The notes below the pieces were generated by a model. It saw nothing but the letters and a program-made list of their open reading frames with translations, ran no database searches and had not been told where the DNA came from. The position numbers and the translations under genes were made by a program. This document shows, in pieces, positions 10,461-31,113 of a stretch of 64,000 nt of DNA (the stretch's first letter is position 1; every line of letters starts with the position of its first letter). This stretch comes from Candidatus Omnitrophota bacterium (GTDB lineage Bacteria; Omnitrophota; Gorgyraeia; Gygaellales; Profunditerraquicolaceae), in contig JBAZTA010000002.1 in assembly GCA_041662125.1 (NCBI GenBank), positions 396,154-460,153 of the forward strand, in the 5' to 3' direction.

Positions 10461-10502
10461 TTCTTCTTAGTTCTCACCTGGCAAAAGTGTTGCAGAATTA
10501 AA

Positions 10503-10530
10503 TTGATAAGAATGACAAAGTTGTTATAAT
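10503..10530 (+). promoter_or_regulatory. Sigma70-like promoter upstream of the 730-aa radical SAM gene
   Basis: TTGATA, 16-nt spacer, TATAAT. Confidence 0.5.
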
Positions 10531-10587
10531 GATAACGGAAATAATGAAGGTTAATTTCGATACGTATCGTTAGCGAGGGTCGAGATA

Positions 10588-13007: not shown

Positions 13008-13643
13008 ATGATTACCAATAAGAATTGTATTATCCGGTTATCGCGGTATAAAAATGCTTTATATCGTCTCAGAACTCTTGGGTTTATTAAAGTATTTTCT
13101 GATAATTTAGCTGATGCCATTGGTGTGATGCCTTCTCAGGTCCGGAAAGATTTCTCGATATTCGGTATTTCCGGAAATAAGCGGGGAGGCTATCAGGTTG
13201 ATGAGCTTATTGAGAAACTCAATAATATCTTAGGTAAGAATGAGATCCAAAAAGTTGTTATTGTTGGGGCAGGCAATATCGGCACCGCGCTCATGAAATA
13301 CAAAGGCTTTGAAAAAGAGGGAATAAAGCTCATGGCGGTCTTTGATATCGATTCTTTGAAATTCAATAAAACCGTAGATGTTCCGGTATTGCCATTGGAG
13401 CAGCTCCCTGATTTTATAAAAAAGAATAAGATCAGAATAGGGATCATTGCGGTTCCTGATATCGCCGCGCAGCAGATACTTGATAGTATGGTTTCTGCGG
13501 GTATTAAGGGGATCTTGAATTTTGCCCCTATACGGTTGCGCGGCCCGGCGGATTGCGTGATCAATAACGTGAACCTGGAGTTGGAGTTGGAAAATGTTAT
13601 TTATTTCGTTAACACGCAGGAGAAAGCAAAGGTTGAGGAATAG
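13008..13643 (+). CDS. rex: Redox-sensing transcriptional repressor Rex (paralog 2)
   Basis: Same architecture as paralog 1 (SRYKNALYRL...DFSIFG...VVIVGAGNIGTALMKY). Own promoter and candidate Rex box upstream. Confidence 0.75.
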   Translation: MITNKNCIIRLSRYKNALYRLRTLGFIKVFSDNLADAIGVMPSQVRKDFSIFGISGNKRGGYQVDELIEKLNNILGKNEIQKVVIVGAGNIGTALMKYKGFEKEGIKLMAVFDIDSLKFNKTVDVPVLPLEQLPDFIKKNKIRIGIIAVPDIAAQQILDSMVSAGIKGILNFAPIRLRGPADCVINNVNLELELENVIYFVNTQEKAKVEE

Positions 13644-13645
13644 GT

Positions 13646-14878
13646 ATGAAGACGACGCCTAAGTCATTGCGTTTGCAGATCGGTTTGTTTGGCCGGACCA
13701 ATGTGGGAAAATCAAGTTTTTTGAATCTCATCGCCGGCCAGGACGTTGCGATCACATCTGCTGTCCCCGGCACAACGACTGACGTCGTGGAAAAGGCCAT
13801 GGAACTTCTACCGCTTGGGCCGGTCGTGTTCTTAGATACCGCAGGGATCGACGATGCTTCTGTGTTGGGTGACCTGCGCGTTAAAAAGTCCCGGAAAATA
13901 TTTGACCGCGCTGATGTTATTGTCTTAATAGCTGAACCTGATGTGTGGGGCGAGTTTGAAGATAAGATCTGGGATGAGGCAGGGAAACGCTCGATCCCGG
14001 TAATTATCGTGGTCAATAAAGCTGATGTGTTGGCGCCTGCAGAAGAGTTTATAGAAGCGCTGCGAAAGAAGACTGATAGATTCTTTCTGTGTTCTAGTAT
14101 CGATTCCGCCCACCGGGATACCTATGTATTTGCTTTGAAAAAGAATCTTATTGAGGTTTGTCCTGCTGATTTCCTGAATCCGCCTCCTTTATTAAAAGAC
14201 CTCCTGCCTTCATGCGGACTGGCAATAATGATCATTCCTATTGATAAGGAAGCTCCGAAAGGAAGGCTTATTTTACCTCAGGCTCAAGCGATACGGGATG
14301 CCTTAGACGGCGATGCGGCGGCGTTGATAGTTAAGGAAAAAGAATACGCCCATACCTTGAGAAATTTGAAGAATCCGCCTGATATCGTTATGTGTGATTC
14401 CCAGGTTGTTGAGAAAATGGTTGCCGATACACCCGCAGGTATCAAATGCACCACGTTTTCGATTTTGTTCGCGCGGAATAAAGGCGATTTATTGGAAATG
14501 GTGAAAGCGATATCGGCCATTGATACGTTAAAGCCGGGTGATAAAATATTAATTGCCGAATCCTGCAGCCATCATGCTATTGAAGATGATATCGGCAGGG
14601 TCAAAATCCCCCGCTGGCTGGAAAAATATTTAGGATTTAAGGTGCATATCGATGTGTGTTCAGGCAGGGATTATCCGGATAATCTCAAGGAGTATAAGCT
14701 TATCGTGCATTGCGGCGGCTGTATGCTGACGCGCAGGGAGATGCTTTTTCGGATCAATAAAGCAAAAGCGGAGAATGTTCCGATAACCAATTACGGTATT
14801 TGTATCGCGTTTTTACAGGGAGTATTAGTTCGGGTGTTATCGCCGTTTCCGGCGTGTTTAGAGGTATTGCGAAAATGA
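13646..14878 (+). CDS. hydF: [FeFe]-hydrogenase maturation GTPase HydF
   Basis: GRTNVGKSSF P-loop and TTTD G2 motif. C-terminal CSHH...HCGGC FeS-binding motif characteristic of HydF. Confidence 0.8.
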   Translation: MKTTPKSLRLQIGLFGRTNVGKSSFLNLIAGQDVAITSAVPGTTTDVVEKAMELLPLGPVVFLDTAGIDDASVLGDLRVKKSRKIFDRADVIVLIAEPDVWGEFEDKIWDEAGKRSIPVIIVVNKADVLAPAEEFIEALRKKTDRFFLCSSIDSAHRDTYVFALKKNLIEVCPADFLNPPPLLKDLLPSCGLAIMIIPIDKEAPKGRLILPQAQAIRDALDGDAAALIVKEKEYAHTLRNLKNPPDIVMCDSQVVEKMVADTPAGIKCTTFSILFARNKGDLLEMVKAISAIDTLKPGDKILIAESCSHHAIEDDIGRVKIPRWLEKYLGFKVHIDVCSGRDYPDNLKEYKLIVHCGGCMLTRREMLFRINKAKAENVPITNYGICIAFLQGVLVRVLSPFPACLEVLRK

Positions 14879-16713
14879 AGACTGAAACCTTGCAAAAGAA
14901 GATATTGTTCTCGTTTTTTCTCGTCATTGGAGTGATGGGGCTGTCTATCGCTATCCTGCGCACGTATGTCATCAAGGTAGATATTATTGACCGGGCGCAG
15001 ACCCAGGTCAAAAATGACCTAAAAGCAGCGCGGGAGGTTTTTGATAATGAGCTCGAAATGATGCAAAAGATGTTTAGCCTCCTGCCTTCGAATGACCATG
15101 TCATCGAATTAAGGGAAAAATTGGGGTTGGATTATTTACGCGTGGCAACGCTTGAAAATAAAACGCGCGTTTTAAGCAAGATCGCGCAGCTTGCGTTTTC
15201 CGGTAAGAGCCTGGGGGCAAGCCGTATTATTGATAAAGACGAGCTTTTGGAGATGGGGGAGGAATTCTATAAACGCTCGGAAATTGAAATACGCTTTACG
15301 CAGAAAGCTAAATCTACGACAAAGAAGATCCTGGATAAAGCAATGGTTTTAGAATACGCTATGCCTCTGGTTACTGAGCAAGGGCAGGTCAAAAGCGTCA
15401 TATATGGGGGGAAGATCATTAATCGCGATTTCGCGTTGGTCGATAGAATACGCGACCTGGTTTTTGAGAATAAGATCTATGATGCCAAGCCGCTGGGAAC
15501 CGTGACAATATTTCTTGATGACGTCCGCATTACCACGAATGTTTTAGACAGCCAAGGCAACCGTGCCATCGGTACGCGGGTTTCCGAGAGAGTCTATGAT
15601 ACGGTGGTCAAGAACGCCTTGACCTGGGTTGACCGGGCCTTTGTTGTGACGGACTGGTACCTTACCGCCTATGAGCCGATACGGGATGTCCAGGGCGCTA
15701 TTATCGGCATACTGTATGTTGGCATCCTGGAAAAGCCCTTTAGCGATATTACCAGAAATGTGCTTTTTGTGCTGGTGGCGATTGTTTCATTTTCTTCTAT
15801 CCTTGCGGCGATTTTAGGGTATGTCCTTGCGGCAACTATCACCAAGCCTTTGACGCAGATGCTTGAAGCGACTTCCCGGATATCGGGAGGCCATCTTGAG
15901 CACCGGGTAGAAAACAGGGCTTCGGTAAAAGAATTGGATGAATTGGCGCGGTCTTTTAATGAGATGGCAGCAAAGCTGCATGAACGCGATATGAGCCTGC
16001 AGGTGTCTAATGATAAACTGGCAGAGCTTAATAAAAGTTACCTTGATTTGATCGGTTTCGTCGCTCATGAGTTAAAGAACATATTGTCTTCTACCATCTT
16101 GAACGCTTATACCGTCAAGGACGGGTTCCTGGGAATGATCAATTTTAAACAGCGTAAAGCTCTTGACTCGGTAGCGCGCAACCTCGATTATTTTGCCTCT
16201 ACCATAAAGAATTTCTTAAACTTAAGCAGAATCGAGAAACATGAGTTGAGCTTGAACAGGTTAGAGTTATCAATAAAAGATGATATTCTTAGCCTCTCAC
16301 TTGAATCGTTCTTGCGCGAGGCAAATGAAAAGAATATCCGGATCATCAATTCCATCCCGGAAGGATTAAAGATAAAAGGTGACAGTGACCTGTTGCAGAT
16401 CGTCTTCAATAATCTTATCGCCAATGCCGTCAAATACGGCAGGCCGGGCGGGCAAATCATCCTGAGCGCACGTGAGTTACCGCAGAGTATTGAAATAGAA
16501 GTCTATAATGATGCCCGGCCTATTCAAGCGGAAGATATCAATAAACTGTTCCAGAAATTCTCTCGTTTGAGTTACGCCGAAAACAAAAAAGAGCGCGGCA
16601 CCGGGTTAGGGCTTTTTATTACTAAAGAGATCATTGAAAAACACGGCGGCAGGATCTGGGTTGAGCCGCGTTTGGAGGGTAACGCGTTTATATTCGGATT
16701 GATGAAAATTTAA
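14875..16713 (+). CDS. Sensor histidine kinase (two TM helices, periplasmic sensor domain, HAMP, HisKA, HATPase)
   Basis: ATG at 14875 overlaps the hydF stop (ATGA). TM1 and TM2 flank a ~260-aa extracytoplasmic domain. H-box VAHELKN. G-box GTGLGLFI. Confidence 0.75.
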   Translation: MKTETLQKKILFSFFLVIGVMGLSIAILRTYVIKVDIIDRAQTQVKNDLKAAREVFDNELEMMQKMFSLLPSNDHVIELREKLGLDYLRVATLENKTRVLSKIAQLAFSGKSLGASRIIDKDELLEMGEEFYKRSEIEIRFTQKAKSTTKKILDKAMVLEYAMPLVTEQGQVKSVIYGGKIINRDFALVDRIRDLVFENKIYDAKPLGTVTIFLDDVRITTNVLDSQGNRAIGTRVSERVYDTVVKNALTWVDRAFVVTDWYLTAYEPIRDVQGAIIGILYVGILEKPFSDITRNVLFVLVAIVSFSSILAAILGYVLAATITKPLTQMLEATSRISGGHLEHRVENRASVKELDELARSFNEMAAKLHERDMSLQVSNDKLAELNKSYLDLIGFVAHELKNILSSTILNAYTVKDGFLGMINFKQRKALDSVARNLDYFASTIKNFLNLSRIEKHELSLNRLELSIKDDILSLSLESFLREANEKNIRIINSIPEGLKIKGDSDLLQIVFNNLIANAVKYGRPGGQIILSARELPQSIEIEVYNDARPIQAEDINKLFQKFSRLSYAENKKERGTGLGLFITKEIIEKHGGRIWVEPRLEGNAFIFGLMKI

Positions 16714-16806: not shown

Positions 16807-16837
16807 TATGCGCCTTTCTGGCGCAAGGAGAATAACT

Positions 16838-17197
16838 ATGTCTGCTACACCACTTGAGATAATTAAAAAGAAACGGGCGGAAGCGCTCAATAGAATTGTC
16901 GGGAAAGGATATTTGTCCACGAAGCGGGTTTATGTGGGCATGGCGACCTGTGAGATAGCAGCCGGTTCAAAAGAAGTTATGGATGTTTTTAATGCTGCGA
17001 TCAAGAACGGTTTGACGGATGTCTATTTGACACAAAAGGGGTGCGCCGGAAGATGTAATTTGGAGCCGACGGTTGAGGTGATCGAAGAAGGAAAGATCCC
17101 GGTTAAATACGGCAAGATAACACAGGAAAAAGCGCTTGAAATCATCGAGCGCCATCTTAAAAAAGGGGAAGTCATTAAAGAATGGCTGATTAAGTAA
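16838..17197 (+). CDS. HndB-like small thioredoxin-fold [2Fe-2S] ferredoxin subunit of NADH-linked [FeFe] hydrogenase
   Basis: ~120 aa with conserved Cys residues (ATCE, KGCAGRC). Sits directly upstream of the NuoF-like subunit. ATG at 16838 has the AAGGAG RBS. Confidence 0.55.
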   Translation: MSATPLEIIKKKRAEALNRIVGKGYLSTKRVYVGMATCEIAAGSKEVMDVFNAAIKNGLTDVYLTQKGCAGRCNLEPTVEVIEEGKIPVKYGKITQEKALEIIERHLKKGEVIKEWLIK

Positions 17198-17254
17198 CCC
17201 CTCGACCGAGCTCGGGGTGAATGAGGCATAAGCGCCAGAGGCATGCCTCATTCA
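17195..17254 (+). repeat. Two-hairpin element family C, copy 1 (between hndB and hndC)
   Basis: TAACCCCTCGACCGAGCTCGGGGTGAATGAGGCATAAGCGCCAGAGGCATGCCTCATTCA. 12-bp stem TGAATGAGGCAT/ATGCCTCATTCA with 13-nt loop. ~85% identical to 60982-61040. Confidence 0.65.
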
Positions 17255-17290
17255 AAGTCAAAAGGCAAAAGAGACGAAAGGTATAAGACA

Positions 17291-19078
17291 ATGAAACGCT
17301 ACACGATTACTTTATGCGACGGGCCCAGCTGTATGCACAAAAAATCAAAGGACCTGCAGGAAGCCATTGAGCGTGAGCTGGAAAAACACGGTATTTTAGA
17401 TAAGGTCAGCATCAATCTCTCCGGCTGCCTGGGGATGTGTCCCAAGGGACCGGTTATGATCATAAATCCGGGGTATACCATATACGGGAAAGTAAGTGTC
17501 GCCGACATTCCCCTGATCATTGAAGGGCATTTGCTGAAGAATAAACCGCTTGCTTCCCTGGTTATCGATGAAGACCATCTTTATAACCGTTTCTTTCGGG
17601 TATTCGGGGATATTAATTTTTTTGGTAAACAGATGAGGATCGCCTTGCGTAACTGCGGTATCATCGACCCTGAGAGTATTGATGATTATCTTTCTGTCAG
17701 AGGCTATGAAGCCCTGGCAAAAGTGTTGACTGACAGTAAACCTCTTGAAGTTATCGCGGAAGTCAAAAAATCAGGGCTGCGGGGCAGGGGCGGGGCTGGT
17801 TTCCCAACGGGACTTAAGTGGGATTTGACGGCGCGGGAAAAAAGCGATGAAAGATACGTCATCTGCAACGCTGATGAGGGGGACCCGGGAGCGTTCATGG
17901 ACCGCAGTATGATCGAGGGAGACCCGCATACTATTATCGAGGGGATGATCATCGGCGGTTACGCCATAGGTTCCGGCAAGGGTATTGTTTATATCAGGGC
18001 TGAATATCCGTTGGCGATCAAACGGTTGGAGAAGGCTATTGAGGTTGCCCGCCGGGAAGGGTTTTTAGGAGAGAATATTTTAGGTTCCGGTTTTTCGTTC
18101 GATATTGAAATACGCCTGGGCGCGGGCGCATTTGTCTGCGGTGAGGAAACAGCGCTCATACATTCAGTTGAAGGCCACCGTGGTATGCCCCGTCCGCGTC
18201 CGCCTTATCCGTCGGTCAGCGGCCTCTTTGGTAAACCTACCGTCATCAATAATGTGGAAACCTGGGCCAATATCCCGGTCATCATACTCGATGGAGCTTC
18301 CTGGTTTAGTTCAATAGGCACAGAAAAAAGTAAAGGCAGTAAAGTCTTTGCCCTCGCCGGTAAGATCAAGAATACCGGGCTTGTTGAGGTGCCGATGGGC
18401 ACGACGCTTCGCCAGATCATTTATGATATTGGCGGAGGTGTCCCGAATAATAAAAAATTCAAAGCCGTTCAGACCGGGGGCCCTTCAGGCGGATGTATCC
18501 CGGAGGAATACCTCGATACCAAGATCGATTATGAATCGCTCTTACAGGTAGGCTCTATCATGGGATCAGGCGGCATGATCGTTATCGATGAAGAATCATG
18601 CATGGTCAATATCGCCAAGTTTTTCCTTGAATTTACCCAGAATGAGTCCTGCGGGAAATGCACTCCCTGCAGGGAAGGCACTAAGCGCATGCTTGAGATC
18701 TTGACCCGTATTACCAAAGGCCACGGCGTTCCTGAAGATATCGAAAAATTGGAGCGATTAGGCACTATGATCAAGAAAGCGTCTCTGTGTGGTTTAGGGC
18801 AGTCAGCTCCGAATCCGGTCTTAAGCACGCTGCGCCATTTTCGCAAGGAATATGAGGACCATATCCATTCAAAACATTGTGTCGCCGGGGTTTGCCAGGC
18901 GATGTTAGTTTATGAGATCCTTGACACCTGTGTCGGCTGTACTGTTTGTAAGAAAAACTGCCCTGTTTCAGCGATTAGCGGCAGTCCTAAACTCAAGCAT
19001 GAGATCATTCAGGAGAAGTGTATTAAATGCGGATTATGTTTTAAAGTATGTAAATTTAACGCTGTTAAAAAAAGCTAA
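17291..19078 (+). CDS. NuoF-like flavoprotein subunit of [FeFe] hydrogenase (HndC/HydB)
   Basis: N-terminal thioredoxin-like 2Fe-2S domain. NuoF core (GLRGRGGAGFPTGLKW). SLBB domain. Two C-terminal 4Fe-4S motifs (CVGCTVCKKNCP, CIKCGLCFKVC). Confidence 0.8.
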   Translation: MKRYTITLCDGPSCMHKKSKDLQEAIERELEKHGILDKVSINLSGCLGMCPKGPVMIINPGYTIYGKVSVADIPLIIEGHLLKNKPLASLVIDEDHLYNRFFRVFGDINFFGKQMRIALRNCGIIDPESIDDYLSVRGYEALAKVLTDSKPLEVIAEVKKSGLRGRGGAGFPTGLKWDLTAREKSDERYVICNADEGDPGAFMDRSMIEGDPHTIIEGMIIGGYAIGSGKGIVYIRAEYPLAIKRLEKAIEVARREGFLGENILGSGFSFDIEIRLGAGAFVCGEETALIHSVEGHRGMPRPRPPYPSVSGLFGKPTVINNVETWANIPVIILDGASWFSSIGTEKSKGSKVFALAGKIKNTGLVEVPMGTTLRQIIYDIGGGVPNNKKFKAVQTGGPSGGCIPEEYLDTKIDYESLLQVGSIMGSGGMIVIDEESCMVNIAKFFLEFTQNESCGKCTPCREGTKRMLEILTRITKGHGVPEDIEKLERLGTMIKKASLCGLGQSAPNPVLSTLRHFRKEYEDHIHSKHCVAGVCQAMLVYEILDTCVGCTVCKKNCPVSAISGSPKLKHEIIQEKCIKCGLCFKVCKFNAVKKS

Positions 19079-19131: not shown

Positions 19132-20904
19132 ATGGAAAAGATAACCATTTATATTAACGCTAAACCCTATGCGGTTGAACCGGATCAAACGATCATGCAG
19201 GCGGCTGATAAGCTGGGGTTTAGAATCCCGCGGCTTTGTTATCATCCGCGGCTTTCTATTGAAGGAGCCTGCCGCGTTTGCATCGTGGAAGTTGAGGGGA
19301 TGCGTAATTACGTAGCCAGCTGTGCGTTTCCTGTCAGTGAGGGGATAAAGATCCATACTGATTCTCAGGAGATCCGTCGGGCGCGCAGGGATATCGTGGA
19401 GTTGATCCTGGATAACCATCCTGATGACTGCCATACCTGCGAGCGGGATAGTATTTGCGAACTCCAGCGCTTGGCGTATTCGATGGGGATCCGTAACCGG
19501 CATTTTAAAGGTGAGAAGAAACAGTATGAAAAAGATATTTCATCGGCTTCAGTTGTTCGCGACCCGAATAAATGTATTCTTTGCGGCAGGTGCGTTAGGA
19601 TTTGTTCTGAGGTGCAAAAGGCACATACTCTGGGGCAGGCTTACCGCGGGTTTAAGACCGTTGTCATGCCTGCATATGATATGCCTTTTAAAGAGAGTGT
19701 CTGTACTAACTGCGGGCAGTGTATTAACGTTTGCCCCACGGCGGCATTTGTCGAGAAAAACCATACCCAGGAAGTATTCTCGAAATTAGATGATAAGTCG
19801 ATCATTAAAGTCGCTCAAGTCGCTCCATCGGTGCGCGCGGCGATAGGCGAAGCTTTCGGGATCGAAGCGGGAAGGTCAATGGAACATGAATTAGTTGCCG
19901 CGCTTAAGCGCCTGGGGTTTGATTATGTTTTTGATACGCAGTTTTCAGCTGACTTGACGATCATGGAAGAGGCAAGTGAATTCCTGGAAAGAGTCCAGGG
20001 TAAGGGCAAGCTGCCGATGATCACTTCTTGTTCAAGCGCCTGGATGAAATGCCTGGAACAATTTTATCCTGATCTGATCGATAATGTTTCGACCTGTAAA
20101 TCTCCCATGTCAATGATGGGGGCTCTGATTAAGACGTACTTCGCGCAGAAAATCAAACAAGATCCAAAGAATATCCTGAATGTTGCGATCATGTGCTGTA
20201 CTGCCAAAAAATATGAAGCGGCGCGGCCGGAACTGATGGTTGACGGTATGCCGGGGACCGATATGGTGGTAACGACTAGAGAAATGGCCTGGATGATCAA
20301 GTCAGCCGGGATAGATCTCCTGCGTATCAAGGGCGAGAATTTTGATGAGCCTCTTGGGCTTTCTTCGGGTGCGGGCACTATTTTTGGCGCTACCGGCGGC
20401 GTCATGGAAGCCGCGATCAGGACTGCCTATGAATTGTATACGGGTGAAACGCTGCTTGATATTGAGATCAGCGATTTGCGCGGGTTAAAGGGGATTAAGG
20501 AAGGTAAAATCGTCTTAGACGGTAAGGAGATACGGGTTGCTGTTGCGCATGGCCTGGGGAATGCCTGTGACCTGCTTGACGTTGTCCGTCACGACCCCGA
20601 TAAATACCATTTTATCGAGATCATGGGGTGCCCCGGCGGATGTATCGGCGGAGGCGGCCAGCCGTATGCGGGTATTAATTCAATTCCTTTGGATGAAGAG
20701 TGCCTGAATAAAAGAGCTGAAGCGCTCTACAACATTGACCGGAATAAAACGATCCGCAGAAGCCATGAAAATCCTGATGTGCAGAGGATCTATAAAGAGT
20801 TTCTGGGCAGGCCGTTGAGCGCCCAGTCGCATAAACTTTTGCATACGCATTATAAAGCGAAAGAGCCTCAAGGCATAATCCCGAGAGAATTTACGGTTAA
20901 ATAA
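19132..20904 (+). CDS. hydA: [FeFe] hydrogenase catalytic subunit (HydA/HndD) with non-canonical H-cluster motifs
   Basis: NuoG-like N-terminal 2Fe-2S and 4Fe-4S domains. H-cluster L3 motif EIMGCPGGCIGGGGQP is canonical. L1 reads TSCSSAW (canonical TSCCPxW). L2 reads MCCTAKKYE (canonical MPCxxKxxE). Confidence 0.8.
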   Translation: MEKITIYINAKPYAVEPDQTIMQAADKLGFRIPRLCYHPRLSIEGACRVCIVEVEGMRNYVASCAFPVSEGIKIHTDSQEIRRARRDIVELILDNHPDDCHTCERDSICELQRLAYSMGIRNRHFKGEKKQYEKDISSASVVRDPNKCILCGRCVRICSEVQKAHTLGQAYRGFKTVVMPAYDMPFKESVCTNCGQCINVCPTAAFVEKNHTQEVFSKLDDKSIIKVAQVAPSVRAAIGEAFGIEAGRSMEHELVAALKRLGFDYVFDTQFSADLTIMEEASEFLERVQGKGKLPMITSCSSAWMKCLEQFYPDLIDNVSTCKSPMSMMGALIKTYFAQKIKQDPKNILNVAIMCCTAKKYEAARPELMVDGMPGTDMVVTTREMAWMIKSAGIDLLRIKGENFDEPLGLSSGAGTIFGATGGVMEAAIRTAYELYTGETLLDIEISDLRGLKGIKEGKIVLDGKEIRVAVAHGLGNACDLLDVVRHDPDKYHFIEIMGCPGGCIGGGGQPYAGINSIPLDEECLNKRAEALYNIDRNKTIRRSHENPDVQRIYKEFLGRPLSAQSHKLLHTHYKAKEPQGIIPREFTVK

Positions 20905-20917
20905 CGGAGGTAATGAT

Positions 20918-21418
20918 ATGTGTTCTGCCAATAACGGGAAACAGCTTGCATTAAGGGCATTTATGGATAACTGTAAAGAAAAAGCGCATCCTGAATCAAA
21001 CCTGATCTCCATATTGCACAAAGCGCAGGAATTGTATGGATATTTAAGTAAGGAAGTCATGGATGATGTGGCGACGCGGATGAATATTCCGACTGCCCAT
21101 ATTTGGGGAGTGGCGACATTTTACCATTATTTTAATCTTAAACCTAAAGGCAAGCATACGGTTTCCATTTGTTTGGGGACTGCTTGTTATGTAAAAGGCG
21201 CTGACCAGATTTTGGACGCGATCAGGGAGGAGTTAATGATCGATGTCGGCCAGACGAGTGAGGATGATTTATTTACCTTGCAGGAAGCCCGTTGTTTGGG
21301 GACCTGCGGGCTTGCCCCGGTGGTCATGATCGATGAAAAGATCTACGGTAACCTGACACCTAAGAAAACTATAGAGATATTGCAGGGATATAAAAAGGCC
21401 GCGGGAAAGTATGATTAA
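20918..21418 (+). CDS. NuoE-like [2Fe-2S] subunit of [FeFe] hydrogenase (HndA/HydC)
   Basis: CLGTACYVKG...CLGTCGLAP Cys pattern of the NuoE thioredoxin-like ferredoxin. GGAGG RBS. Confidence 0.75.
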   Translation: MCSANNGKQLALRAFMDNCKEKAHPESNLISILHKAQELYGYLSKEVMDDVATRMNIPTAHIWGVATFYHYFNLKPKGKHTVSICLGTACYVKGADQILDAIREELMIDVGQTSEDDLFTLQEARCLGTCGLAPVVMIDEKIYGNLTPKKTIEILQGYKKAAGKYD

Positions 21419-22472
21419 AACCGAAACAATATTACAGAGGATTTATAAAGCCGAAGACCCTCGCGCGGCGGATATCGAGTATTTATTATCGCGGGAATCT
21501 TCTGATGAGGTGGGGATGATCTTTCGTTTTGCCGACTCGGTTCGCCGTGCCCACGCAGGAGACGGGATCCTCGCGCGCGGGATTATTGAGTTTTCCAACT
21601 ATTGCGCGAATTCTTGCGCTTATTGCGGGCTTAACAGGAATAACAAAAGTTTAAAACGGTACCGGCTCAGCCATGATGAGATCTTCAAAAGTATTCTTAA
21701 GATGGTTTCCTTAGGGATAAAGACCGTGGTCTTGCAGTCAGGAGAAGATTTTAGTATGGAAGCACTCCTTTTAAAAGAAACTATTGAGGAGATAAAGGCG
21801 CGTTTTGATGTTGCTCTTACGCTTTCTGTTGGAGAAAGAAGTGCCCGCGATTACCGCCTCTGGCGTAAGGCAGGCGCGGACCGGTATTTGCTTAAGATCG
21901 AGACAACGAATCGAAGATTGTATGAATCGCTTCATGCGGGGATGAGTTTTCAGCAGAGGATAAACTGCCTCAAGGCGCTTCAGGATCTCGGCTATCAAAC
22001 CGGTTCAGGAGTAATCGTTGGTTTAAAGGGCCAGACACTCCGCATGCTCGCCGAGGATATCGTGTTTTTCAAGAAAAACAATTTTGATATGATCGGGATC
22101 GGCCCGTTTATTCCGCATCCGGCTACTAAACTCAAAAACCAGGCGCAGGCAGATGTGAGCCTGACGTTGAAAACACTGGCGCTTACCAGGATCGTTACTA
22201 AAAATGCGCATCTTCCCGCGACAACAGCGTTAGGCAGTATCGGGAAGAGGGATTTTAAGATCGACGGGCTTCGCGCGGGGGCAAACGTGATCATGCTTAA
22301 TTTTACTCCTCCAGAATACAGCAGATTATATGAAATATATCCCGGTAAAGGCAATCACGACGGATTGATCGCGTCATACGAATCGTATATGCGAGGCTTG
22401 AGCGAGGCTACGGGCAGGCCATTTGATTTCGCCCGGGGAGATTCTCTGGTGCAGGTGACCGACAACCGATAA
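21411..22472 (+). CDS. hydE: HydE-family radical SAM maturase (second paralog, no HypC-like extension)
   Basis: IIEFSNYCANSCAYCGLNRNNKSLKRYR matches the HydE radical-SAM region. LQSGED and GPFIPHPATKL motifs present. Closes the structural operon. Confidence 0.75.
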   Translation: MIKTETILQRIYKAEDPRAADIEYLLSRESSDEVGMIFRFADSVRRAHAGDGILARGIIEFSNYCANSCAYCGLNRNNKSLKRYRLSHDEIFKSILKMVSLGIKTVVLQSGEDFSMEALLLKETIEEIKARFDVALTLSVGERSARDYRLWRKAGADRYLLKIETTNRRLYESLHAGMSFQQRINCLKALQDLGYQTGSGVIVGLKGQTLRMLAEDIVFFKKNNFDMIGIGPFIPHPATKLKNQAQADVSLTLKTLALTRIVTKNAHLPATTALGSIGKRDFKIDGLRAGANVIMLNFTPPEYSRLYEIYPGKGNHDGLIASYESYMRGLSEATGRPFDFARGDSLVQVTDNR

Positions 22473-22478
22473 CCGTAA

Positions 22479-22551
22479 CACCCGGCGCTAATTGCACCCA
22501 TCCTCATTGGTGTGGCTGGGTACGCCGCTTGCTGCGGCGGTATTGCGCTGG
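22479..22551 (+). repeat. Conserved intergenic element family A, copy 3 (downstream of hydE2, upstream of the response regulator)
   Basis: See copy 1. Followed by a variable hairpin (CTCGCC/GGCGAG) and the response-regulator promoter. Confidence 0.7.
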
Positions 22552-22625
22552 TGAGCCGTTTTCTACTGCAGGAAGCAGACACTCGCCTTTCCAATTAAGG
22601 CGAGGTGTGCGGCACATTATTTCTA

Positions 22626-22653
22626 TTGAGTTAAAAAATAAGTTTGTTATAAT
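22626..22653 (+). promoter_or_regulatory. Sigma70-like promoter upstream of the response-regulator gene
   Basis: TTGAGT, 16-nt spacer, TATAAT, about 25 nt upstream of the AAAGGAGG RBS. Confidence 0.5.
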
Positions 22654-22678
22654 AAATACCAACAAAGGAGGAAATACG

Positions 22679-23065
22679 ATGTCCAAGAAAATACTTATTA
22701 TTGATGATGATGCTGATTTTGTAGAAGCGATTACTACCTTGCTGGATGCCAAAGGTTATGAGGTGACTTCTGCTCCTGACGGGGAAGAAGGGTTTAAGAA
22801 GGCAAAGTCAAGTGTCCCGAACCTGATCTTACTTGATGTCATGATGGCGACAAAGACGCAAGGCTTCGATATTGCGGTAAATCTCAAGAAAGAAGCAAAA
22901 ACAAAAGATGTGCCTGTGGTTATGATCACCGGTATTAAGCGTGACATGAACCTTCCTTTTGGTTTTGAGCCTGATGAAGACTGGCTGCCGGTTAAAGCTG
23001 TTTTAGAAAAACCGGTAAAGCCTGAGGTGTTGTTAAAGGCTGTTGAGGAACATATTAAAAAATAA
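22679..23065 (+). CDS. Single-domain response regulator (CheY-like receiver)
   Basis: ILIIDDD acidic pocket, phospho-acceptor D in LILLDVMM, and a conserved K. No output domain. ATG at 22679 with AAAGGAGG RBS. The track start 22529 lies inside the upstream repeat. Confidence 0.7.
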   Translation: MSKKILIIDDDADFVEAITTLLDAKGYEVTSAPDGEEGFKKAKSSVPNLILLDVMMATKTQGFDIAVNLKKEAKTKDVPVVMITGIKRDMNLPFGFEPDEDWLPVKAVLEKPVKPEVLLKAVEEHIKK

Positions 23066-23266: not shown

Positions 23267-24835
23267 ATGAAGCCAAAAACTATAGAGATCAACGAGCAAT
23301 TCAAGAAAGCCTTGGATGTAATAGAAAATACCTCAAAGAACGTTTTTGTTACCGGAAAAGCAGGAACCGGTAAATCAACGCTCTTGGAGTATTTTCGTTC
23401 CAAAACTAAAAAGAAAATCGCGGTATTGGCTCCTACCGGTGTAGCCGCCTTGAATGTGCGTGGAGAAACCATCCATTCTTTCTTTAGGTTTAAGCCAAAT
23501 ATCACGCTTGAGAAAATAAAAAAGATTAAAGGAAAGCGCGCGCGGATATTCAAGGAAATAGAGGCGATTGTCATTGATGAAATATCCATGGTGCGCGCTG
23601 ATCTGCTGGACTGTATAGAGAGATTCTTGCGTTTAAATGGAAAGAATTCAGGTATGCTTTTTGGCGGCATTCAGATGATCTTTATCGGGGACCTCTATCA
23701 ATTGCCTCCGGTAGTTACCTTACGGGAAAAGCATATATTCAGCCAGTATTATCAAAGCCCGTATTTTTTCTCTGCGCGTTTATTTGAAGAACTTGAAATG
23801 GAATTTATCGAGCTCGAGAAGATTTACCGTCAGAAGGATGAGGATTTCATAGGTTTGCTTAATGCTATCCGTAACAACAGTATTACGGATGAAATGCTGG
23901 AGATGCTCAATACGCGCGCTCAGCCATGTATGGATGATCGCCGTGAAGCGTTTACCTTGCACTTAACCACGACCAATCAAATGGCTGCCCGGATTAATAA
24001 CTACCACTTACAGCAGCTTAGGTCAAAAATATTCACCTATCAGGCAGAAATGTCTGGTGATTTCCAAGAACATACCTGTCCTGCTGATGCTCAATTACAG
24101 GTTGCGGTCGGGGCTCAGGTGATGTTATTGAATAATGATTCTGAGGATAGGTGGGTCAATGGTTCCATCGCGGAAGTTAAGGAAATAAAGCATGATAAGA
24201 AAAATGATACCGATGTGATTTATGTCCGGATGCAGGATGGTTCTCTGGAAGAAGTCTTGCCGCATAGCTGGGAATTATTCCATTATCGTTTTAACGAAGA
24301 CACCTTTTCCATAGAAACAGAATCAGCCGGCTCATTCACGCAATATCCGCTTAAGTTGGCGTGGGCAATTACTATTCATAAGAGCCAGGGTAAGACTTTT
24401 GAGAGGGTAGTTATCGATATGGGAAACGGCGCGTTTGCCAATGGTCAAACCTATGTTGCCTTAAGCAGGTGCACTTCTTTGGACGGCATTATACTTAAAC
24501 GTTCGATCAGAAAATCAGATATCCGCATGGATTGGAATATCGCGGAATTCCTGACGAAATACCAGTATGCGTTGTCCCAACGAGACTTGCCGCTTGAGGA
24601 CAAAGTGGATTTGATCGAACAGGCGATTAAGAACGATTGTCACCTTGCCATTGTATATCTTAAAGCCAGTGATGAGAAAACGCGCAGGGTAATTAAGCCT
24701 CTTGGTGTTGGCAAGAAAGAGTATCGGGGAGAAACCTTTATCGGCGTAGATGCGTATTGCCTCAAGCGTGGGGAAGAACGGGTTTTTCGGGTGGACTGGA
24801 TGCTGGAGATAAAGCTAGCCGATGTTCCCCACTAA
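23267..24835 (+). CDS. PIF1/RecD-like superfamily 1 helicase with uncharacterised C-terminal extension
   Basis: Walker A VFVTGKAGTGKST. PIF1-type motifs (IDEISMV, ITIHKSQGKTFERVVI). ~120-aa C-terminal region of unknown function. Confidence 0.7.
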   Translation: MKPKTIEINEQFKKALDVIENTSKNVFVTGKAGTGKSTLLEYFRSKTKKKIAVLAPTGVAALNVRGETIHSFFRFKPNITLEKIKKIKGKRARIFKEIEAIVIDEISMVRADLLDCIERFLRLNGKNSGMLFGGIQMIFIGDLYQLPPVVTLREKHIFSQYYQSPYFFSARLFEELEMEFIELEKIYRQKDEDFIGLLNAIRNNSITDEMLEMLNTRAQPCMDDRREAFTLHLTTTNQMAARINNYHLQQLRSKIFTYQAEMSGDFQEHTCPADAQLQVAVGAQVMLLNNDSEDRWVNGSIAEVKEIKHDKKNDTDVIYVRMQDGSLEEVLPHSWELFHYRFNEDTFSIETESAGSFTQYPLKLAWAITIHKSQGKTFERVVIDMGNGAFANGQTYVALSRCTSLDGIILKRSIRKSDIRMDWNIAEFLTKYQYALSQRDLPLEDKVDLIEQAIKNDCHLAIVYLKASDEKTRRVIKPLGVGKKEYRGETFIGVDAYCLKRGEERVFRVDWMLEIKLADVPH

Positions 24836-24958: not shown

Positions 24959-24976
24959 TTGTGATAAATTTCACAA
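24959..24976 (+). promoter_or_regulatory. Near-consensus Rex operator upstream of the [NiFe] hydrogenase operon
   Basis: TTGTGATAAATTTCACAA: perfect right half-site TTCACAA and a single mismatch in the left half-site (TTGTGAT) vs TTGTGAA-N4-TTCACAA. About 20 nt downstream of the -10. Confidence 0.6.
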
Positions 24977-24987
24977 TCAGCTGTTGT

Positions 24988-25230
24988 ATGCATGAAACAC
25001 ACCTCATAGCTAATATCTTGAAATACCTGGAAGAAGAAGAAAAGTCCCAATCCAGGAAAATTGCCAGGATATATATTTCCTTGTCGGAATTTGGCGGTTT
25101 GACCGAAGAGCATTTCCGGCATCATTACGACGAAGCGGTCGCGGGAAGCCGGTGGGAAAAGGTTTTTGTTGAAATCAAGAAGATCCCCTATGGCCCGGAG
25201 TTAGAAATTACAAAATTAGATTTTGCTTAA
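24988..25230 (+). CDS. hypA: HypA-like nickel metallochaperone N-terminal domain only (zinc-finger region absent)
   Basis: Starts MHETHL, matching the HypA MHE nickel-binding N-terminus and alpha/beta domain pattern. Ends after ~81 aa with no CxxC...CxxC zinc finger. Confidence 0.45.
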   Translation: MHETHLIANILKYLEEEEKSQSRKIARIYISLSEFGGLTEEHFRHHYDEAVAGSRWEKVFVEIKKIPYGPELEITKLDFA

Positions 25231-25246
25231 ACTTTAAGGAGGAACC

Positions 25247-26275
25247 GTGAAATATGCTGTCATAAAAAAAGATGACCTGAATAAGTGGGTTACGCATTTA
25301 ATGAAAAAAGCTCGGGTTTACGCGCCGAAGAAAAAAGAGAGCAGTTTTGTCTTTCGTCCTGTCAAGGATGTCGCTGATATCTGCCTGAAATATATTCCGA
25401 CCATCCTTCCTCCTAAAAAATACTATTTTCCTCAAAAAGAAAAACTATTAAAATTCAGCGTTAAACCTTTTAAAACATCCAAGGCGATAAAAGAATTTGA
25501 GGAGTTTATCCTTTTTGGCGTGCATACCTGCGATGTTGCCGGTATCCAGTGCATGGATGTGGTATTCCGTCAAGAGCCTGAAGACCCTAATTATCTCAAC
25601 CGTAAAGATAAGATGTCCATTATTGGCATTGAATGCCTGGAATATTGCGATAAGTTTGCTAATTGTACGGTCATGGGCAACCATGTCCCGCGCGGCGGGT
25701 ATGATTTAATGATGATTGATATAGGCTCGCAGTTTGTGCTGCATATTAATTCTGAAAAAGGCGAGCAGTTGATCAAAGGCCTGGCGTATATAAAAGAAGC
25801 CGGCCCGAAAGATATGGATGCTTTAGCAAATGCTCGAGAGGCAAAGAAAAAAATCTTCAAACAGGAATTTAATACTTCATTGCCGAAAGTCTATGAAGCT
25901 TTCGATAAGTCTTTTGCATCCAAAGTCTGGGAAGATCTCGGTAAGCGCTGTGTCGGCTGCGGTAATTGTACGGCGGTTTGCCCCACCTGTTATTGTTTTG
26001 ATGTTATGGATGATATGGCGCTCTCATTACAAGATGGCGTGCGTTACCGGATATGGAATTCCTGCCAGATGGATGATTTCGCTAAAGTTGCAGGGGGAGA
26101 GGATTTCAGGAAAGGCCGCGACGGGCGGCAGCGCCATCGCTATTACCGAAAATTTAAGTATCCGGTTGATAAATTTAACCGCTACTTTTGCACCGGCTGC
26201 GGCCGTTGTACGAGGGCGTGTATGGCAGAGATCAATTTGGTAGATACCGTTAATTCCCTGGTTGGGACGATTTAA
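25247..26275 (+). CDS. [NiFe] hydrogenase group 3b-like beta subunit (4Fe-4S ferredoxin-type)
   Basis: CVGCGNCTAVCPTCYC and CTGCGRCTRACM 4Fe-4S motifs. First gene of the beta-gamma-delta-alpha order seen in sulfhydrogenase-type operons. GTG start after a GGAGG RBS. Confidence 0.7.
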   Translation: MKYAVIKKDDLNKWVTHLMKKARVYAPKKKESSFVFRPVKDVADICLKYIPTILPPKKYYFPQKEKLLKFSVKPFKTSKAIKEFEEFILFGVHTCDVAGIQCMDVVFRQEPEDPNYLNRKDKMSIIGIECLEYCDKFANCTVMGNHVPRGGYDLMMIDIGSQFVLHINSEKGEQLIKGLAYIKEAGPKDMDALANAREAKKKIFKQEFNTSLPKVYEAFDKSFASKVWEDLGKRCVGCGNCTAVCPTCYCFDVMDDMALSLQDGVRYRIWNSCQMDDFAKVAGGEDFRKGRDGRQRHRYYRKFKYPVDKFNRYFCTGCGRCTRACMAEINLVDTVNSLVGTI

Positions 26276-26311
26276 TAAGCGCGCGCGAGAGTAAATAAAG
26301 GAGAAACAATC

Positions 26312-27178
26312 ATGATTGACCGAGAGATACTTTTAGAGCATATGAAGACCTCTCCCTATAAGCCGATGAAGGGGAAGATCCTTGAGGCTCGGATGCTTAC
26401 CGAAAAGGAGAAGTTTTTCAGGATCGAGTTGGAAGGAAAGACTAACCTCGCTCACGAGCCGGGGCAGTTTGTCATGGTTTCGATATTCGGCTATGGAGAA
26501 GCCCCGATCTCCATATGTTCTTCGCCGACCGACAAAGGTTATTTTGATCTGACCGTCAGAAACGTCGGGACATTGACCAATGCTTTGCATCGCTTAGGCG
26601 CGGGTGATATCGTCGGTATCCGCGGCCCCTTCGGGATTGGTTTTCCTATCGGGAACATGTTCGGGTTTGACCTGGTTATCGTTGCAGGCGGTTTAGGTAT
26701 TGTGCCGCTGCGGTCATTGATACGCTATATTATGCATAACCGCAATGATTTCGGAGAAGTCCAGATCCTGCTTGGCTGCAGGACCCCGAAAGAGCTTTTA
26801 TTTAAAGAAGAAACCCATGATTGGCAGCGCAGGGCGGAAATTAAATTTAATTGCACGGTGGATAAAGCCGATCCTGAATGGACGGGTAATGTCGGTTTGA
26901 TCACTACCCTTATCCCGGGTGTTGATATTAATCCGACCCGTACCTATGGAGTTGTTGTCGGCCCGCCTATCATGTATAAATTTGTCATTACCAAACTTAT
27001 TGAGAAAAATATCCCTGATCATCAGATCATTGTTTCTCTTGAACGCAGGATGAAATGCGGGCTTGGTAAATGCGGCCATTGCCAGATCGAAGGTATGTAT
27101 GTCTGCCAGTCCGGCCCTGTATTCAATTATAGCCAGTTAAAAAATTTTAAAGGAGAATGCCATGAAAAAGCAATCTAA
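26312..27178 (+). CDS. [NiFe] hydrogenase gamma subunit (FAD/NAD(P)-binding, 2Fe-2S)
   Basis: PyrK-like oxidoreductase fold with C-terminal CGLGKCGHCQ motif. Confidence 0.7.
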   Translation: MIDREILLEHMKTSPYKPMKGKILEARMLTEKEKFFRIELEGKTNLAHEPGQFVMVSIFGYGEAPISICSSPTDKGYFDLTVRNVGTLTNALHRLGAGDIVGIRGPFGIGFPIGNMFGFDLVIVAGGLGIVPLRSLIRYIMHNRNDFGEVQILLGCRTPKELLFKEETHDWQRRAEIKFNCTVDKADPEWTGNVGLITTLIPGVDINPTRTYGVVVGPPIMYKFVITKLIEKNIPDHQIIVSLERRMKCGLGKCGHCQIEGMYVCQSGPVFNYSQLKNFKGECHEKAI

Positions 27179-27926
27179 GCCAAAAGTGGCTTTTTTCGAT
27201 TTTTCCGATTGTGAAGGCTGCCAATTGCAGTTTGCCAATATGGGGGAGACGCTTTTAGCGATCACCGACTTGGTGGATATCGTGAATTTCCGTGAGATCA
27301 TGTCGGAAAACGGACAGGATTATGATATTGCTTTTATTGAAGGCAGTATCACTACCGACCATGATGTCGTGCGTATTAAAGCTATCAGGGAAAAAGCAAA
27401 AGTCATTATTTCATTGGGGGCCTGCGCTACTATCGGCGGCGTCAATGGGATCAAAAACCGCGCGCCGCTTGATGTTGCCAAACAGCGGGTCTATGGAGAT
27501 AAGGCTCATCTGATCAATACTATTAAGACTATGCCGGTGCACGCAGTGGTTAAAGTGGATTATTTTATTAATGGCTGTCCGGTGTATATCCCTGAAGTTG
27601 TCGCGGTGCTTAAATGCCTGCTTATGGGCAAGCCGTATGTGGTGCCCAATTATTCTGTTTGTACTGAATGTAAAAGCAATGAAAATGTCTGCCGGTATGA
27701 GAAAGACCAGGAATGTATGGGGCCGGTTACCAGGGCAGGATGTAACTCATGGTGTGTTAATAACGGGAACAGGTGTTATGGATGCAGAGGGTTAGTGGAT
27801 AATCCCGCCTCAAACGGCCAGAAAGATATTTTAGTGAAATACGGTTTAAAACTCGATGATGTTTTACGGCATTTTACCTTATATAACGATTCAATGGGAG
27901 AGAAATATGACAAAGAATTCAAATAA
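27162..27926 (+). CDS. [NiFe] hydrogenase small (delta) subunit
   Basis: FDFSDCEGCQLQ proximal-cluster motif of the NuoB/hydrogenase small-subunit family. Additional Cys clusters for medial and distal FeS. Confidence 0.75.
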   Translation: MKKQSKPKVAFFDFSDCEGCQLQFANMGETLLAITDLVDIVNFREIMSENGQDYDIAFIEGSITTDHDVVRIKAIREKAKVIISLGACATIGGVNGIKNRAPLDVAKQRVYGDKAHLINTIKTMPVHAVVKVDYFINGCPVYIPEVVAVLKCLLMGKPYVVPNYSVCTECKSNENVCRYEKDQECMGPVTRAGCNSWCVNNGNRCYGCRGLVDNPASNGQKDILVKYGLKLDDVLRHFTLYNDSMGEKYDKEFK

Positions 27927-29259: not shown

Positions 29260-29722
29260 AAAAAGAGCTGTTATAGGTTTAGGGAATACGTTGAGGAGAG
29301 ACGATGGGATCGGTATTCTGGTTCTTGAATCTCTCTTCGCTGTTTATAAGCGCCAGAATATCGATTACCTGGATTTTGGGACCGCCAGTTTCGATCTTCT
29401 CTTTAAGTTTCAGGAGTATTCGCAAGTCCTTTTGATCGATGCCATTGATGCCGGCCTTGCGCCGGGGGAGCTGGCTATTTTTGACTTGAGCCAAATGCGC
29501 GCCGATGAACTACCTATGGTTATTTCTTCGCATGAGCTTAACCTGAAAAGTATTTTTGAACTCGCCAGGAAATTTGAGGTTAAAGCAAAGATCTATGTCG
29601 CCGGCATTCAGGTCCAGGATGTGGCTCATGGGGAAGGTTTGAGCCTTAAGCTTGCAGATAGAAAAGAAGCGATCGTAAGCGAGATCAGCGAGTTTATCGA
29701 TAAAAAGTTTGTGAATGCATAG
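29252..29722 (+). CDS. Hydrogenase maturation endopeptidase (HycI/HoxW family)
   Basis: GLGNTLRRDDGIG signature of the hydrogenase C-terminal processing protease. Length 156 aa. Confidence 0.7.
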   Translation: MSKKRAVIGLGNTLRRDDGIGILVLESLFAVYKRQNIDYLDFGTASFDLLFKFQEYSQVLLIDAIDAGLAPGELAIFDLSQMRADELPMVISSHELNLKSIFELARKFEVKAKIYVAGIQVQDVAHGEGLSLKLADRKEAIVSEISEFIDKKFVNA

Positions 29723-31099: not shown

Positions 31100-31113
31100 A
31101 AGGGGGAGGAGCG

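Follow-up and report, generated by a model that had tools for sequence, protein, structure and literature searches.

A HydABC-type [FeFe]-hydrogenase from Omnitrophota with a serine at the L1 ligand of the [4Fe-4S]H subcluster and a new cysteine beside the L2 ligand

The hydA gene examined here (positions 19132–20904, plus strand) lies in a 64,000-nucleotide stretch of a Candidatus Omnitrophota bacterium genome (contig JBAZTA010000002.1, positions 396,154 to 460,153; hereafter the window) and encodes the 590-residue catalytic subunit of a HydABC-type [FeFe]-hydrogenase, i.e. a group A enzyme (A3; 'A6' in the NCBI naming) coupled to NuoE/NuoF-like partners. The residue lost from its L1 motif is the fourth ligand of the [4Fe-4S] subcluster of the H-cluster ([4Fe-4S]H), which is replaced by a serine; in addition, the prolines next to the L1 and L2 ligands have given way to a serine and to a new cysteine, Cys355, respectively. 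The sequence data suggest, with a probability that we put at about 0.78, that the protein is a fully matured, catalytically active hydrogenase of the type identified and not a sensor or a dead paralog. This estimate covers the identity of the enzyme and its activity, the role of Cys355 being weighed separately below.

HydA displays an M3-type layout, in which a 2Fe-2S domain, a NuoG-type 4Fe-4S domain and two Fer4 domains precede the H-domain and a small-subunit-like C-terminus. The Pfam scan matched Fe_hyd_lg_C (PF02906, 1.7e-89) and Fe_hyd_SSU (PF02256, 2.4e-25) together with Fer2_4, NADH-G_4Fe-4S_3 and two copies of Fer4, and it detected neither a PAS domain nor any other sensory domain in the protein. 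Among the NCBIfam models, HydA passes NF040763 ('NADH-dependent [FeFe] hydrogenase, group A6'; 830 bits, cut-off 765) and TIGR02512 (group A; 500.1 bits, cut-off 405.95) and falls below the cut-off of the group B model TIGR04105 (160.8 bits, cut-off 450); in the literature searched, 'group A6' was seen as an annotation label only. The best PDB matches are Thermoanaerobacter kivui HydA (8a6t_A, E 3.2e-179) and Acetobacterium woodii HydA1 (7q4v_A, E 2e-162), and a Foldseek search with the AlphaFold2 (AF2) model of HydA (pLDDT 79.5) returned 8a6t_A, 7q4w_A and CpI of Clostridium pasteurianum as top matches. The original prediction, made from the sequence and its open reading frames (ORFs), was that of the catalytic subunit of an [FeFe]-hydrogenase whose L1 and L2 motifs are non-canonical; it is borne out by Pfam and NCBIfam.

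The three motifs lie, all on the plus strand, exactly where they had been read: L1 is TSCSSAW (residues 298–304, positions 20023–20043, codons act tct tgt tca agc gcc tgg), L2 is MCCTAKKYE (residues 354–362, positions 20191–20217, starting with atg tgc tgt) and L3 is EIMGCPGGCIGGGGQP (residues 496–511, positions 20617–20664). L3 is canonical, with the pattern ExMxCxxGCxxGGGQP and both of its cysteines. In L1, one of the two adjacent cysteines and the proline of TSCCPxW are indeed replaced by Ser-Ser. Compared to MPCxxKxxE, L2 retains the Met (M354), the ligand Cys, the Lys (K359) and the Glu, and shows a single replacement, Pro to Cys at position 355, which creates the tandem C355–C356.

Residue equivalences were counted along HMMER alignments of HydA to CpI, T. 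kivui HydA and A. woodii HydA1, all three of which are free of gaps between the conserved PM.TSC and the Trp of L1. C300 (positions 20029–20031) corresponds to CpI C299, the proton relay, and is kept; S301 (20032–20034) corresponds to CpI C300, a [4Fe-4S]H ligand, and to Ser301 of A. woodii HydA1; and S302 (20035–20037) corresponds to CpI P301, the residue next after the L1 ligand. As for L2, the new cysteine C355 (20194–20196) takes the place of CpI P354, just before the L2 ligand, and C356 (20197–20199) is the canonical [4Fe-4S]H ligand (CpI C355). The L3 residues C500 (20629–20631) and C504 (20641–20643) are the counterparts of the [4Fe-4S]H ligands C499 and C503 of CpI, C503 forming the bridge to the di-iron site. 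Since the alignment to CpI contains no gap, C300 is the retained relay and S301 the lost cubane ligand: of the two L1 cysteines, between which the original prediction had not chosen, it is thus the ligand that is replaced. The CpI proton pathway (E279, E282, R286 and S319) is preserved in full as E280, E283, R287 and S320, and the CpI residues contacting the 2Fe site are also kept, with CpI Ser232 represented by S233.

The kept proton pathway and 2Fe-site contacts, the three canonical Cys ligands, the maturases and the NuoE/NuoF partners form the basis on which we consider the enzyme active. Working against so firm a view is the fact that the activity of enzymes with an MCC motif in L2 is deduced from conservation and maturase context; moreover, the sequence is compatible with a bifurcating as well as an NADH-only mode, the name of NF040763 being NADH-dependent and the best structural relatives being bifurcating. 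With this qualification, the HydABC-type enzyme probably couples H2 to NAD(H), and probably to ferredoxin as well.

A Cys-to-Ser substitution in L1 is already known from a characterized enzyme. In A. woodii HydA1, Ser301(Aw) stands in place of the Cys299(Tk) ligand of cluster A1 and was modeled as a cubane ligand; its presence leaves the Fourier-transform infrared spectra and the activity unchanged, the enzyme being an active, electron-bifurcating and fast bidirectional hydrogenase (PMC10021017). The same HydABC paper names the L2 Cys (Cys354Tk) as the bridge to the di-iron site, a sentence on which we do not rely (PMC10021017). Because an accepted member carries the same ligand change, TSCCPxW is not strictly defining for group A. 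The form TSCSPGW had already been noticed in Melainabacteria (ACD20), together with a lost L3 Cys (PMC3787301). The idea that the variant might be typical of a characterized subgroup, which had been envisaged with the original prediction, therefore holds for Ser301 but not for the L1 Pro-to-Ser and L2 Pro-to-Cys replacements, which are absent from A. woodii HydA1. In the literature searched, we found no description of Pro to Ser/Ala at position 302 of L1 or of Pro to Cys at position 355 of L2. The same literature mentioned a serine ligand of the H-cluster in the HydABC paper only and a TSCSP motif in the Melainabacteria paper only, and it offered nothing useful on the geometry around CpI P301 and P354.

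The variant motifs are strongly conserved among relatives. All of the 120 nearest database homologs (77–95% identity, mostly from metagenome-assembled genomes (MAGs) of Omnitrophota) combine TSCS[S/A]AW with MCC, and MCC is found in 75 of the 80 best genome loci, which, for those with MCC, belong to Omnitrophota, Phycisphaerae, Sedimentisphaerales, Anaerohalosphaeraceae, Endomicrobiia, Margulisiibacteriota and Vulcanimicrobiota. A third homolog search, seeded with the deepest MCC representative (P0122), added fusions of HydA and HydC from Armatimonadota and Margulisiibacteriota, as well as sequences from Auribacterota, Firmicutes and Anaerobaca lacustris. Altogether, MCC is present in 343 of 433 aligned relatives, 340 of which also have TSCS[S/A]; the MCC type thus extends over Omnitrophota, Planctomycetota, Endomicrobiia, Margulisiibacteriota, Armatimonadota and others. 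This recurrence and conservation rule out chance, a sequencing error or a decaying gene. Note that the HydA–HydC fusions (P0122 and P0362–P0399) are about 750–785 residues long, carry PF01257 at their C-terminus and include representatives of all motif states.

These states were defined by positions 300–302 and 355–356 in the 433 relatives, one of which (P0401) is garbled across the motifs and was given no state. CSS/CC accounts for 293 sequences and CSA/CC for 47, followed by CCP/PC (68), CSP/PC (20), CCP/CC (two), CSP/CC (one) and CSI/PC (one); neither CS[SA]/PC nor any CC[SA] state occurs among the 433. In the 343 MCC sequences, C300, C355, C356, C500, C504, E280, E283, R287, M354, K359 and S233 are invariant, position 301 is Ser in 341, position 302 is Ser in 293, Ala in 47 and Pro in three, and position 320 is Ser or Thr. 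Within the clade, Ser or Ala at 302 always goes with Cys355, and Cys301 always with Pro302; in every sequence sampled outside the MCC superclade, position 355 is Pro. In about 20 of 150 sequences, each representing a 50%-identity cluster, TSCSPxW occurs with MPC. Positions 302 and 355 looked perfectly coupled in the first 480 or so sequences, but this coupling is broken by the mixed forms P0385 and P0386 (TSCCPTW with MCC) and P0414 (TSCSPGW with MCC), and by P0133, outside the clade, which has TSCSIGW with MPC.

What does Cys355 do? We tentatively favor, at somewhat less than even odds, the possibility that it is the missing fourth thiolate of [4Fe-4S]H, so that Cys355 and Cys356 would be tandem ligands, Ser301 being kept as a hydrogen-bond donor. 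The fourth cubane ligand would then have moved from L1 to L2 in a large, multi-phylum HydABC clade, with repeated toggling between this arrangement and the canonical build via rare dual-option intermediates (TSCCP/MCC and TSCSP/MCC). Such a role would restore a total of four thiolates. It is consistent with the strict conservation of Cys355 (343 of 343), while its partner at position 302 tolerates Ser or Ala, and with the dependence of Ser/Ala302 on Cys355 within the superclade. Likewise, Ser301 becomes Cys only where Pro302 is back, whereas Cys and Ser alternate freely in Pro302/Pro355 backgrounds. In the AF2 model, both variant motifs sit at strand-to-helix junctions: in L1, strand 296–299 is followed by C300 and S301 and then by helix 302–311, and in L2, strand 348–354 is followed by C355, C356 and T357 and then by helix 358–363. 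Tandem Cys ligands in a strand-to-helix loop are known from cluster N2 of complex I (Nqo6/NuoB), a [4Fe-4S] cluster held by adjacent cysteines within an alpha/beta fold; this is a functional analogy to the tandem-Cys idea, the NuoB fold not being homologous to the H-domain.

Several observations weigh against Cys355 as a ligand and speak for a nearly equal alternative, namely that Ser301 remains an oxygen ligand as in A. woodii HydA1, and that Cys355, together with Ser/Ala302, A303, K306 and G499, forms a compensatory second-shell packing and hydrogen-bonding set that would retune the cubane while not itself binding iron. Ser301 is itself preserved, as expected of a retained ligand, in all but two of the 343 MCC sequences, and a direct structural precedent exists at the identical residue number (PMC10021017). 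Besides, three sequences with MCC have other forms of L1, canonical throughout in P0385/P0386 and TSCSPGW in P0414; since TSCCP/MCC sequences exist, Cys355 is not obligatorily the fourth ligand. The invariance of M354, C356 and K359, which flank or adjoin position 355, suggests an unchanged L2 backbone, in which case side chain 355 could point away from the cluster. Finally, the residues that switch between motif states (see below) are grouped at the start of the L1 helix and beside L2 and L3, as packing partners would be. Pure packing, however, leaves unexplained why position 355 is Cys in all 343 sequences and never Ser, Ala, Thr or Val, and why Ser301 does not toggle to Cys in a Ser/Ala302 background although it does so freely elsewhere.

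A third possibility, which we regard as unlikely, is that Cys355 lies beside the relay Cys300 on the neighboring strand end and works with it, for example as a reversible thiol/disulfide or iron-capping switch that protects against oxidants, or as another thiol of the proton relay. Precedents are the capping of the H-cluster by the relay Cys in CbA5H and, for an invariant non-canonical Cys near the H-cluster, the extra Cys of group B enzymes with TSCCCP; in the AF2 model, a strand ends just before C300 and another just before C355, in consecutive beta-loop-alpha units. However, the adjacency and register of the two strands are only assumed, the sequence data show no link between positions 355 and 300, and the co-switching sites surround the cubane and not the relay.

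On inspection of the sequence, in which one of two adjacent L1 cysteines is gone, the original prediction took the replacement of Cys by Ser to modify the proton-transfer pathway, in the way of sensory or non-canonical groups; altered proton pathways are indeed a feature of sensory, HydS-type enzymes. A removed or altered relay and a sensory-like or low-activity protein are now very improbable: the retained Cys aligns without gaps with CpI C299, E280, E283, R287 and S320 are all kept, no PAS or sensory domain was detected, HydA clears the cut-offs for group A but not the one for group B, and the same Ser occurs in A. woodii HydA1, a hydrogenase that works fast in both directions (PMC10021017). 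Equally remote is the idea of an HylA-like electron-transfer subunit lacking a functional H-cluster, or of a sequencing or assembly artifact: although NuoE/NuoF-type complexes do include hydrogenase-like subunits without H-cluster cysteines, and ACD20 Melainabacteria combine TSCSPGW with a lost L3 Cys (PMC3787301), L3 has both cysteines intact here, C356, C500, C504 and the 2Fe-site contacts are invariant in the 343 sequences, HydE, HydF and HydG are encoded near the operon, and the motif recurs in hundreds of independent assemblies.

To place the motif states on a phylogeny, we built neighbor-joining trees (100–200 bootstraps, simple distance correction) with the three motifs excluded from the distances. 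The superclade that is overwhelmingly MCC receives 99–100% bootstrap support. Nested in it are about 25 Planctomycetota sequences with TSCSPGW/MPC or TSCCPGW/MPC (97–99% bootstrap); P0396 and P0399 (TSCSPGW/MPC), which fall within a 100% clade of Margulisiibacteriota fusions and are sister to MCC sequences with 85% support; two single MPC sequences, L068 and P0398; and the mixed forms P0385/P0386 and P0414. As the neighboring lineages are MCC, parsimony points to one origin of the variant and at least two well-supported returns to MPC. The returns probably number four, the alternative being many parallel gains. That the trees are neighbor-joining and not maximum-likelihood trees, that many internal nodes are weak and that the sequences come mostly from MAGs all tell against reading the topology too closely.

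Recombination was considered as a source of the nested canonical lineages but found no support: in sliding windows over residues 284–363, identity does not rise toward outgroups, and divergence from the MCC sequences is faster, so that no imported outgroup tract is apparent around L1–L2 (the test concerned outgroup donors, paralogous donors lying outside it). Residue changes scored in five MPC lineages against residues that are nearly invariant in MCC sequences affected positions 302 and 355 in all five lineages, K306 (to N or S) and G499 (to A or S) in four, and S233 (to A) and A303 (to G) in three. Of these sites, 302, 303 and 306 belong to the opening turns of the L1 helix, 355 lies in L2, 499 adjoins an L3 ligand and 233 belongs to the APS motif. 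The clade-specific set (Ser/Ala302, Cys355, K306, G499, S233 and A303) may thus represent one co-adapted alternative build of the cubane pocket, and evolution would have switched several times between this build and the canonical one. Pro to Cys at position 355 requires two nucleotide changes, and Ser302 codons are mostly AGY; the switches are therefore multi-step, and they are presumably under selection. The codons of Ser301 are all TCN, so that serine codon-family switching carries no information on selection at this site. Another lineage-specific change near the H-cluster concerns position 361, the aromatic residue of KK[Y/F/W]E, which is C, S, G, D or N in the Planctomycetota sister clade with canonical motifs (e.g. 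MPCTAKKCE).

Comparison with known systems clarifies what is shared and what is not. A. woodii HydA1 (HydABC(D) complex; PDB codes: 7Q4V, 7Q4W, 8A5E) has the same domain architecture and NuoE/NuoF partners as our protein and the same L1 Cys-Ser at the same residue numbers (C300 and S301); unlike it, it retains both flanking prolines (TSCSPGW and MPC), lacks the second L2 Cys and has Ala in place of S233 and G499. In terms of abundance, 340 of the 433 relatives are of the CS[SA]/CC type found here, against 20 of the A. woodii-like CSP/PC type. T. kivui HydA (HydABC; PDB codes: 8A6T, 8BEW) is the best match in both sequence and fold (47% identity in Foldseek) and belongs to the same type of complex, but its motifs are fully canonical (TSCCPSW and MPC). 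CpI, the prototype of group A (M3), shares the F-domain plus H-domain layout and 37–38% identity; in contrast to our protein, it is monomeric and ferredoxin-dependent, with canonical L1 and L2. HydS (putatively sensory, groups C/D) and group B enzymes (TSCCCP) are likewise natural variants in the L1 region; unlike HydS, our protein has no PAS or regulatory domain and has a full proton pathway, and unlike group B, its L1 is TSCSSAW and its score against TIGR04105 is below the cut-off.

The closest canonical counterparts are the orthologs of Planctomycetota (Sedimentisphaerales and related: L065, L066, P0271–P0283, L059 and L063), which are 72–75% identical to our protein, nested within the MCC superclade and arranged in the same synteny, with genes for Rex, a histidine kinase (HK), a thioredoxin-like subunit (Trx), HydB, HydA and, further on, HydC. 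They differ in having TSCCPGW/MPC (L065, L066 and P0271–P0283) or TSCSPGW/MPC (L059 and L063), in having N at K306, in having A at G499 in the TSCCP members only, and in an extra gene between hydA and hydC. The interval between hydA and hydC measures about 1.5 kb in five Planctomycetota loci (L055, L059, L063, L065 and L066), and the product encoded there in L055 and L066 shows weak similarity to HydE (24% identity) and may be HydG.

The commonest architecture of the related loci is Rex–HK–Trx–HydB–HydA–HydC–RR, where RR is a response regulator, and the bracketing of the hydrogenase genes by Rex, kinase and receiver genes is kept in more than 20 of them. The synteny Rex–HK–Trx–HydB–HydA–HydC–RR(–HydE/F) is common to MCC loci and to the canonical or MPC sister loci L059, L063, L065 and L066, which indicates that both motif states represent the same enzyme and not functionally diverged paralogs. 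In one locus (L058, positions 7862–10694), a second HydC–HydB–HydA set, about 37–46% identical and cut by the locus end, is present on the contig of an MCC operon, and its HydA has TSCSPGW/MPC; hence, both ligand-shell types can coexist as paralogs in one genome. A 4122-residue database protein (P0121) contains six detected H-domain units of 444 residues (TSCCASW/MPCTVKKTE) that are 99–100% identical to one another, the search having counted seven matching stretches. Its probable origin is an artifact of assembly or gene modeling, or else a tandem array that arose very recently.

What appears to be undescribed is the coupled replacement of the two prolines by Ser/Ala and by Cys, the strictness with which a large multi-phylum clade conserves it, and the repeated switching of the shell. 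The redox and proton-coupled behavior of the H-cluster is set by the [4Fe-4S]H subcluster, for which variant ligand shells have, to our knowledge, come mainly from mutagenesis until now. Here we have what looks like a natural, strongly selected alternative shell, with Ser at the L1 ligand, both flanking prolines lost and an invariant Cys beside the L2 ligand, which is found across hundreds of genomes from little-studied anaerobes (Omnitrophota, Phycisphaerae, Endomicrobiia, Margulisiibacteriota and Armatimonadota). The carriers of the variant include a named species, Anaerobaca lacustris, and Anaerohalosphaeraceae bacterium U12dextr, whose record is not labeled as a MAG. The orthologs with a canonical shell in the same operon context provide matched pairs for assessing the effects of cubane ligation on catalytic bias, potential and stability. 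Since a Cys missing from TSCCP need not touch the relay, motif-based screens that discard such sequences as non-functional would lose the whole clade. Were Cys355 a ligand, the enzyme would harbor a coordination isomer of the H-cluster that occurs in nature and has not been described before; were it merely a second-shell residue, the variant would be a modest addition to the variation of the A. woodii type.

The genes around hydA, all on the plus strand, agree with the assignment of the enzyme. As predicted, four genes of a NuoE/NuoF-type operon stand in a row, encoding a small thioredoxin-like subunit, HydB, HydA and HydC. The hydB gene (17243–19078) codes for a NuoF-like flavoprotein with an N-terminal thioredoxin-like 2Fe-2S domain, the FMN/NAD site and a C-terminal 2x[4Fe-4S] domain (Pfam); its best PDB match, over its full length, is A. 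woodii HydB (7q4v_B, E 2.9e-249, residues 17–610). The hydC gene (20918–21418) codes for a NuoE-like [2Fe-2S] subunit (PF01257, 4.8e-52), which among the NuoE/HoxE-family models passed only NF005722 (145.2 bits, cut-off 141), the best-scoring model, HoxE NF005747, remaining below its cut-off (183.7 bits, cut-off 224). The small subunit (16808–17197; HydD/HndB-like, assigned from PDB matches and synteny) has a thioredoxin-like ferredoxin fold and no Pfam match; it matches the N-terminal domains of NfnB/HoxF and the Aquifex [2Fe-2S] ferredoxin in the PDB, and its gene is conserved directly upstream of hydB in related loci. It may start downstream of 16808. The ORF as listed contains three Cys only (C48, C79 and C83), whereas thioredoxin-like [2Fe-2S] ferredoxins have four, so that the subunit may carry no cluster or one with a non-Cys ligand. 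Four-subunit NAD(P)-linked [FeFe]-hydrogenases are known as HndABCD in Solidesulfovibrio fructosivorans and HydABCD in Caldanaerobacter (Thermoanaerobacter) tengcongensis, which comprise the same four products (hydrogenase, NuoF-like, NuoE-like and small thioredoxin-like); the gene order found here (small subunit–HydB–HydA–HydC) differs from theirs.

All three H-cluster maturases are encoded within the window: the GTPase HydF (13646–14878; TIGR03918, 522 bits, cut-off 326) and the radical-SAM proteins HydE (21411–22472; TIGR03956, 308 bits, cut-off 255) and HydG (6995–8365; TIGR03955, 537 bits, cut-off 312). The rex gene (13008–13643; NF003996, 247.6 bits, cut-off 138), which codes for a redox-sensing (NADH/NAD+) transcriptional repressor, is syntenic with the operon, and we infer that Rex regulates the hydrogenase. 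A membrane sensor histidine kinase with Cache, HAMP, HisKA and HATPase domains (14800–16713; Pfam, synteny) is encoded between hydF and the structural genes, and a response-regulator receiver protein (22529–23065; PF00072, synteny) downstream of hydE. Note that the kinase ORF as listed begins with a TTG at 14800 and shares about 80 nucleotides with the end of hydF; its true start is therefore probably further downstream.

Other genes of the window lie on either side. Directly upstream of hydG and overlapping it is an ORF for a GltD/NfnB-like NADPH-dependent oxidoreductase (5592–7010; TIGR01316, 577 bits), which, with the preceding 266-residue ORF (4808–5608), could form an NfnAB-type transhydrogenase. 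Positions 10588–12780 encode a 730-residue protein with a C-terminal radical-SAM domain (PF04055, residues 514–644), which none of the NCBIfam models matched at E ≤ 1e-20. Positions 23267–24835 encode a PIF1-like helicase that has a WYL domain at its C-terminus; its gene separates the locus described here from a second, unrelated hydrogenase locus (24961–29722). The latter comprises a HypA-like ORF (24961–25230), a Fer4_22 protein (25247–26275), a FAD/NAD-binding DHODB-type Fe-S protein (26312–27178), a NuoB-like small subunit (27162–27926), a [NiFe] large subunit (27856–29259) and a HycI-type protease (29252–29722), a layout that resembles that of a group 3 (sulfhydrogenase-like) [NiFe]-hydrogenase. 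It is followed by the glycine-cleavage genes for GcvT, GcvPA and GcvPB (30005–34282).

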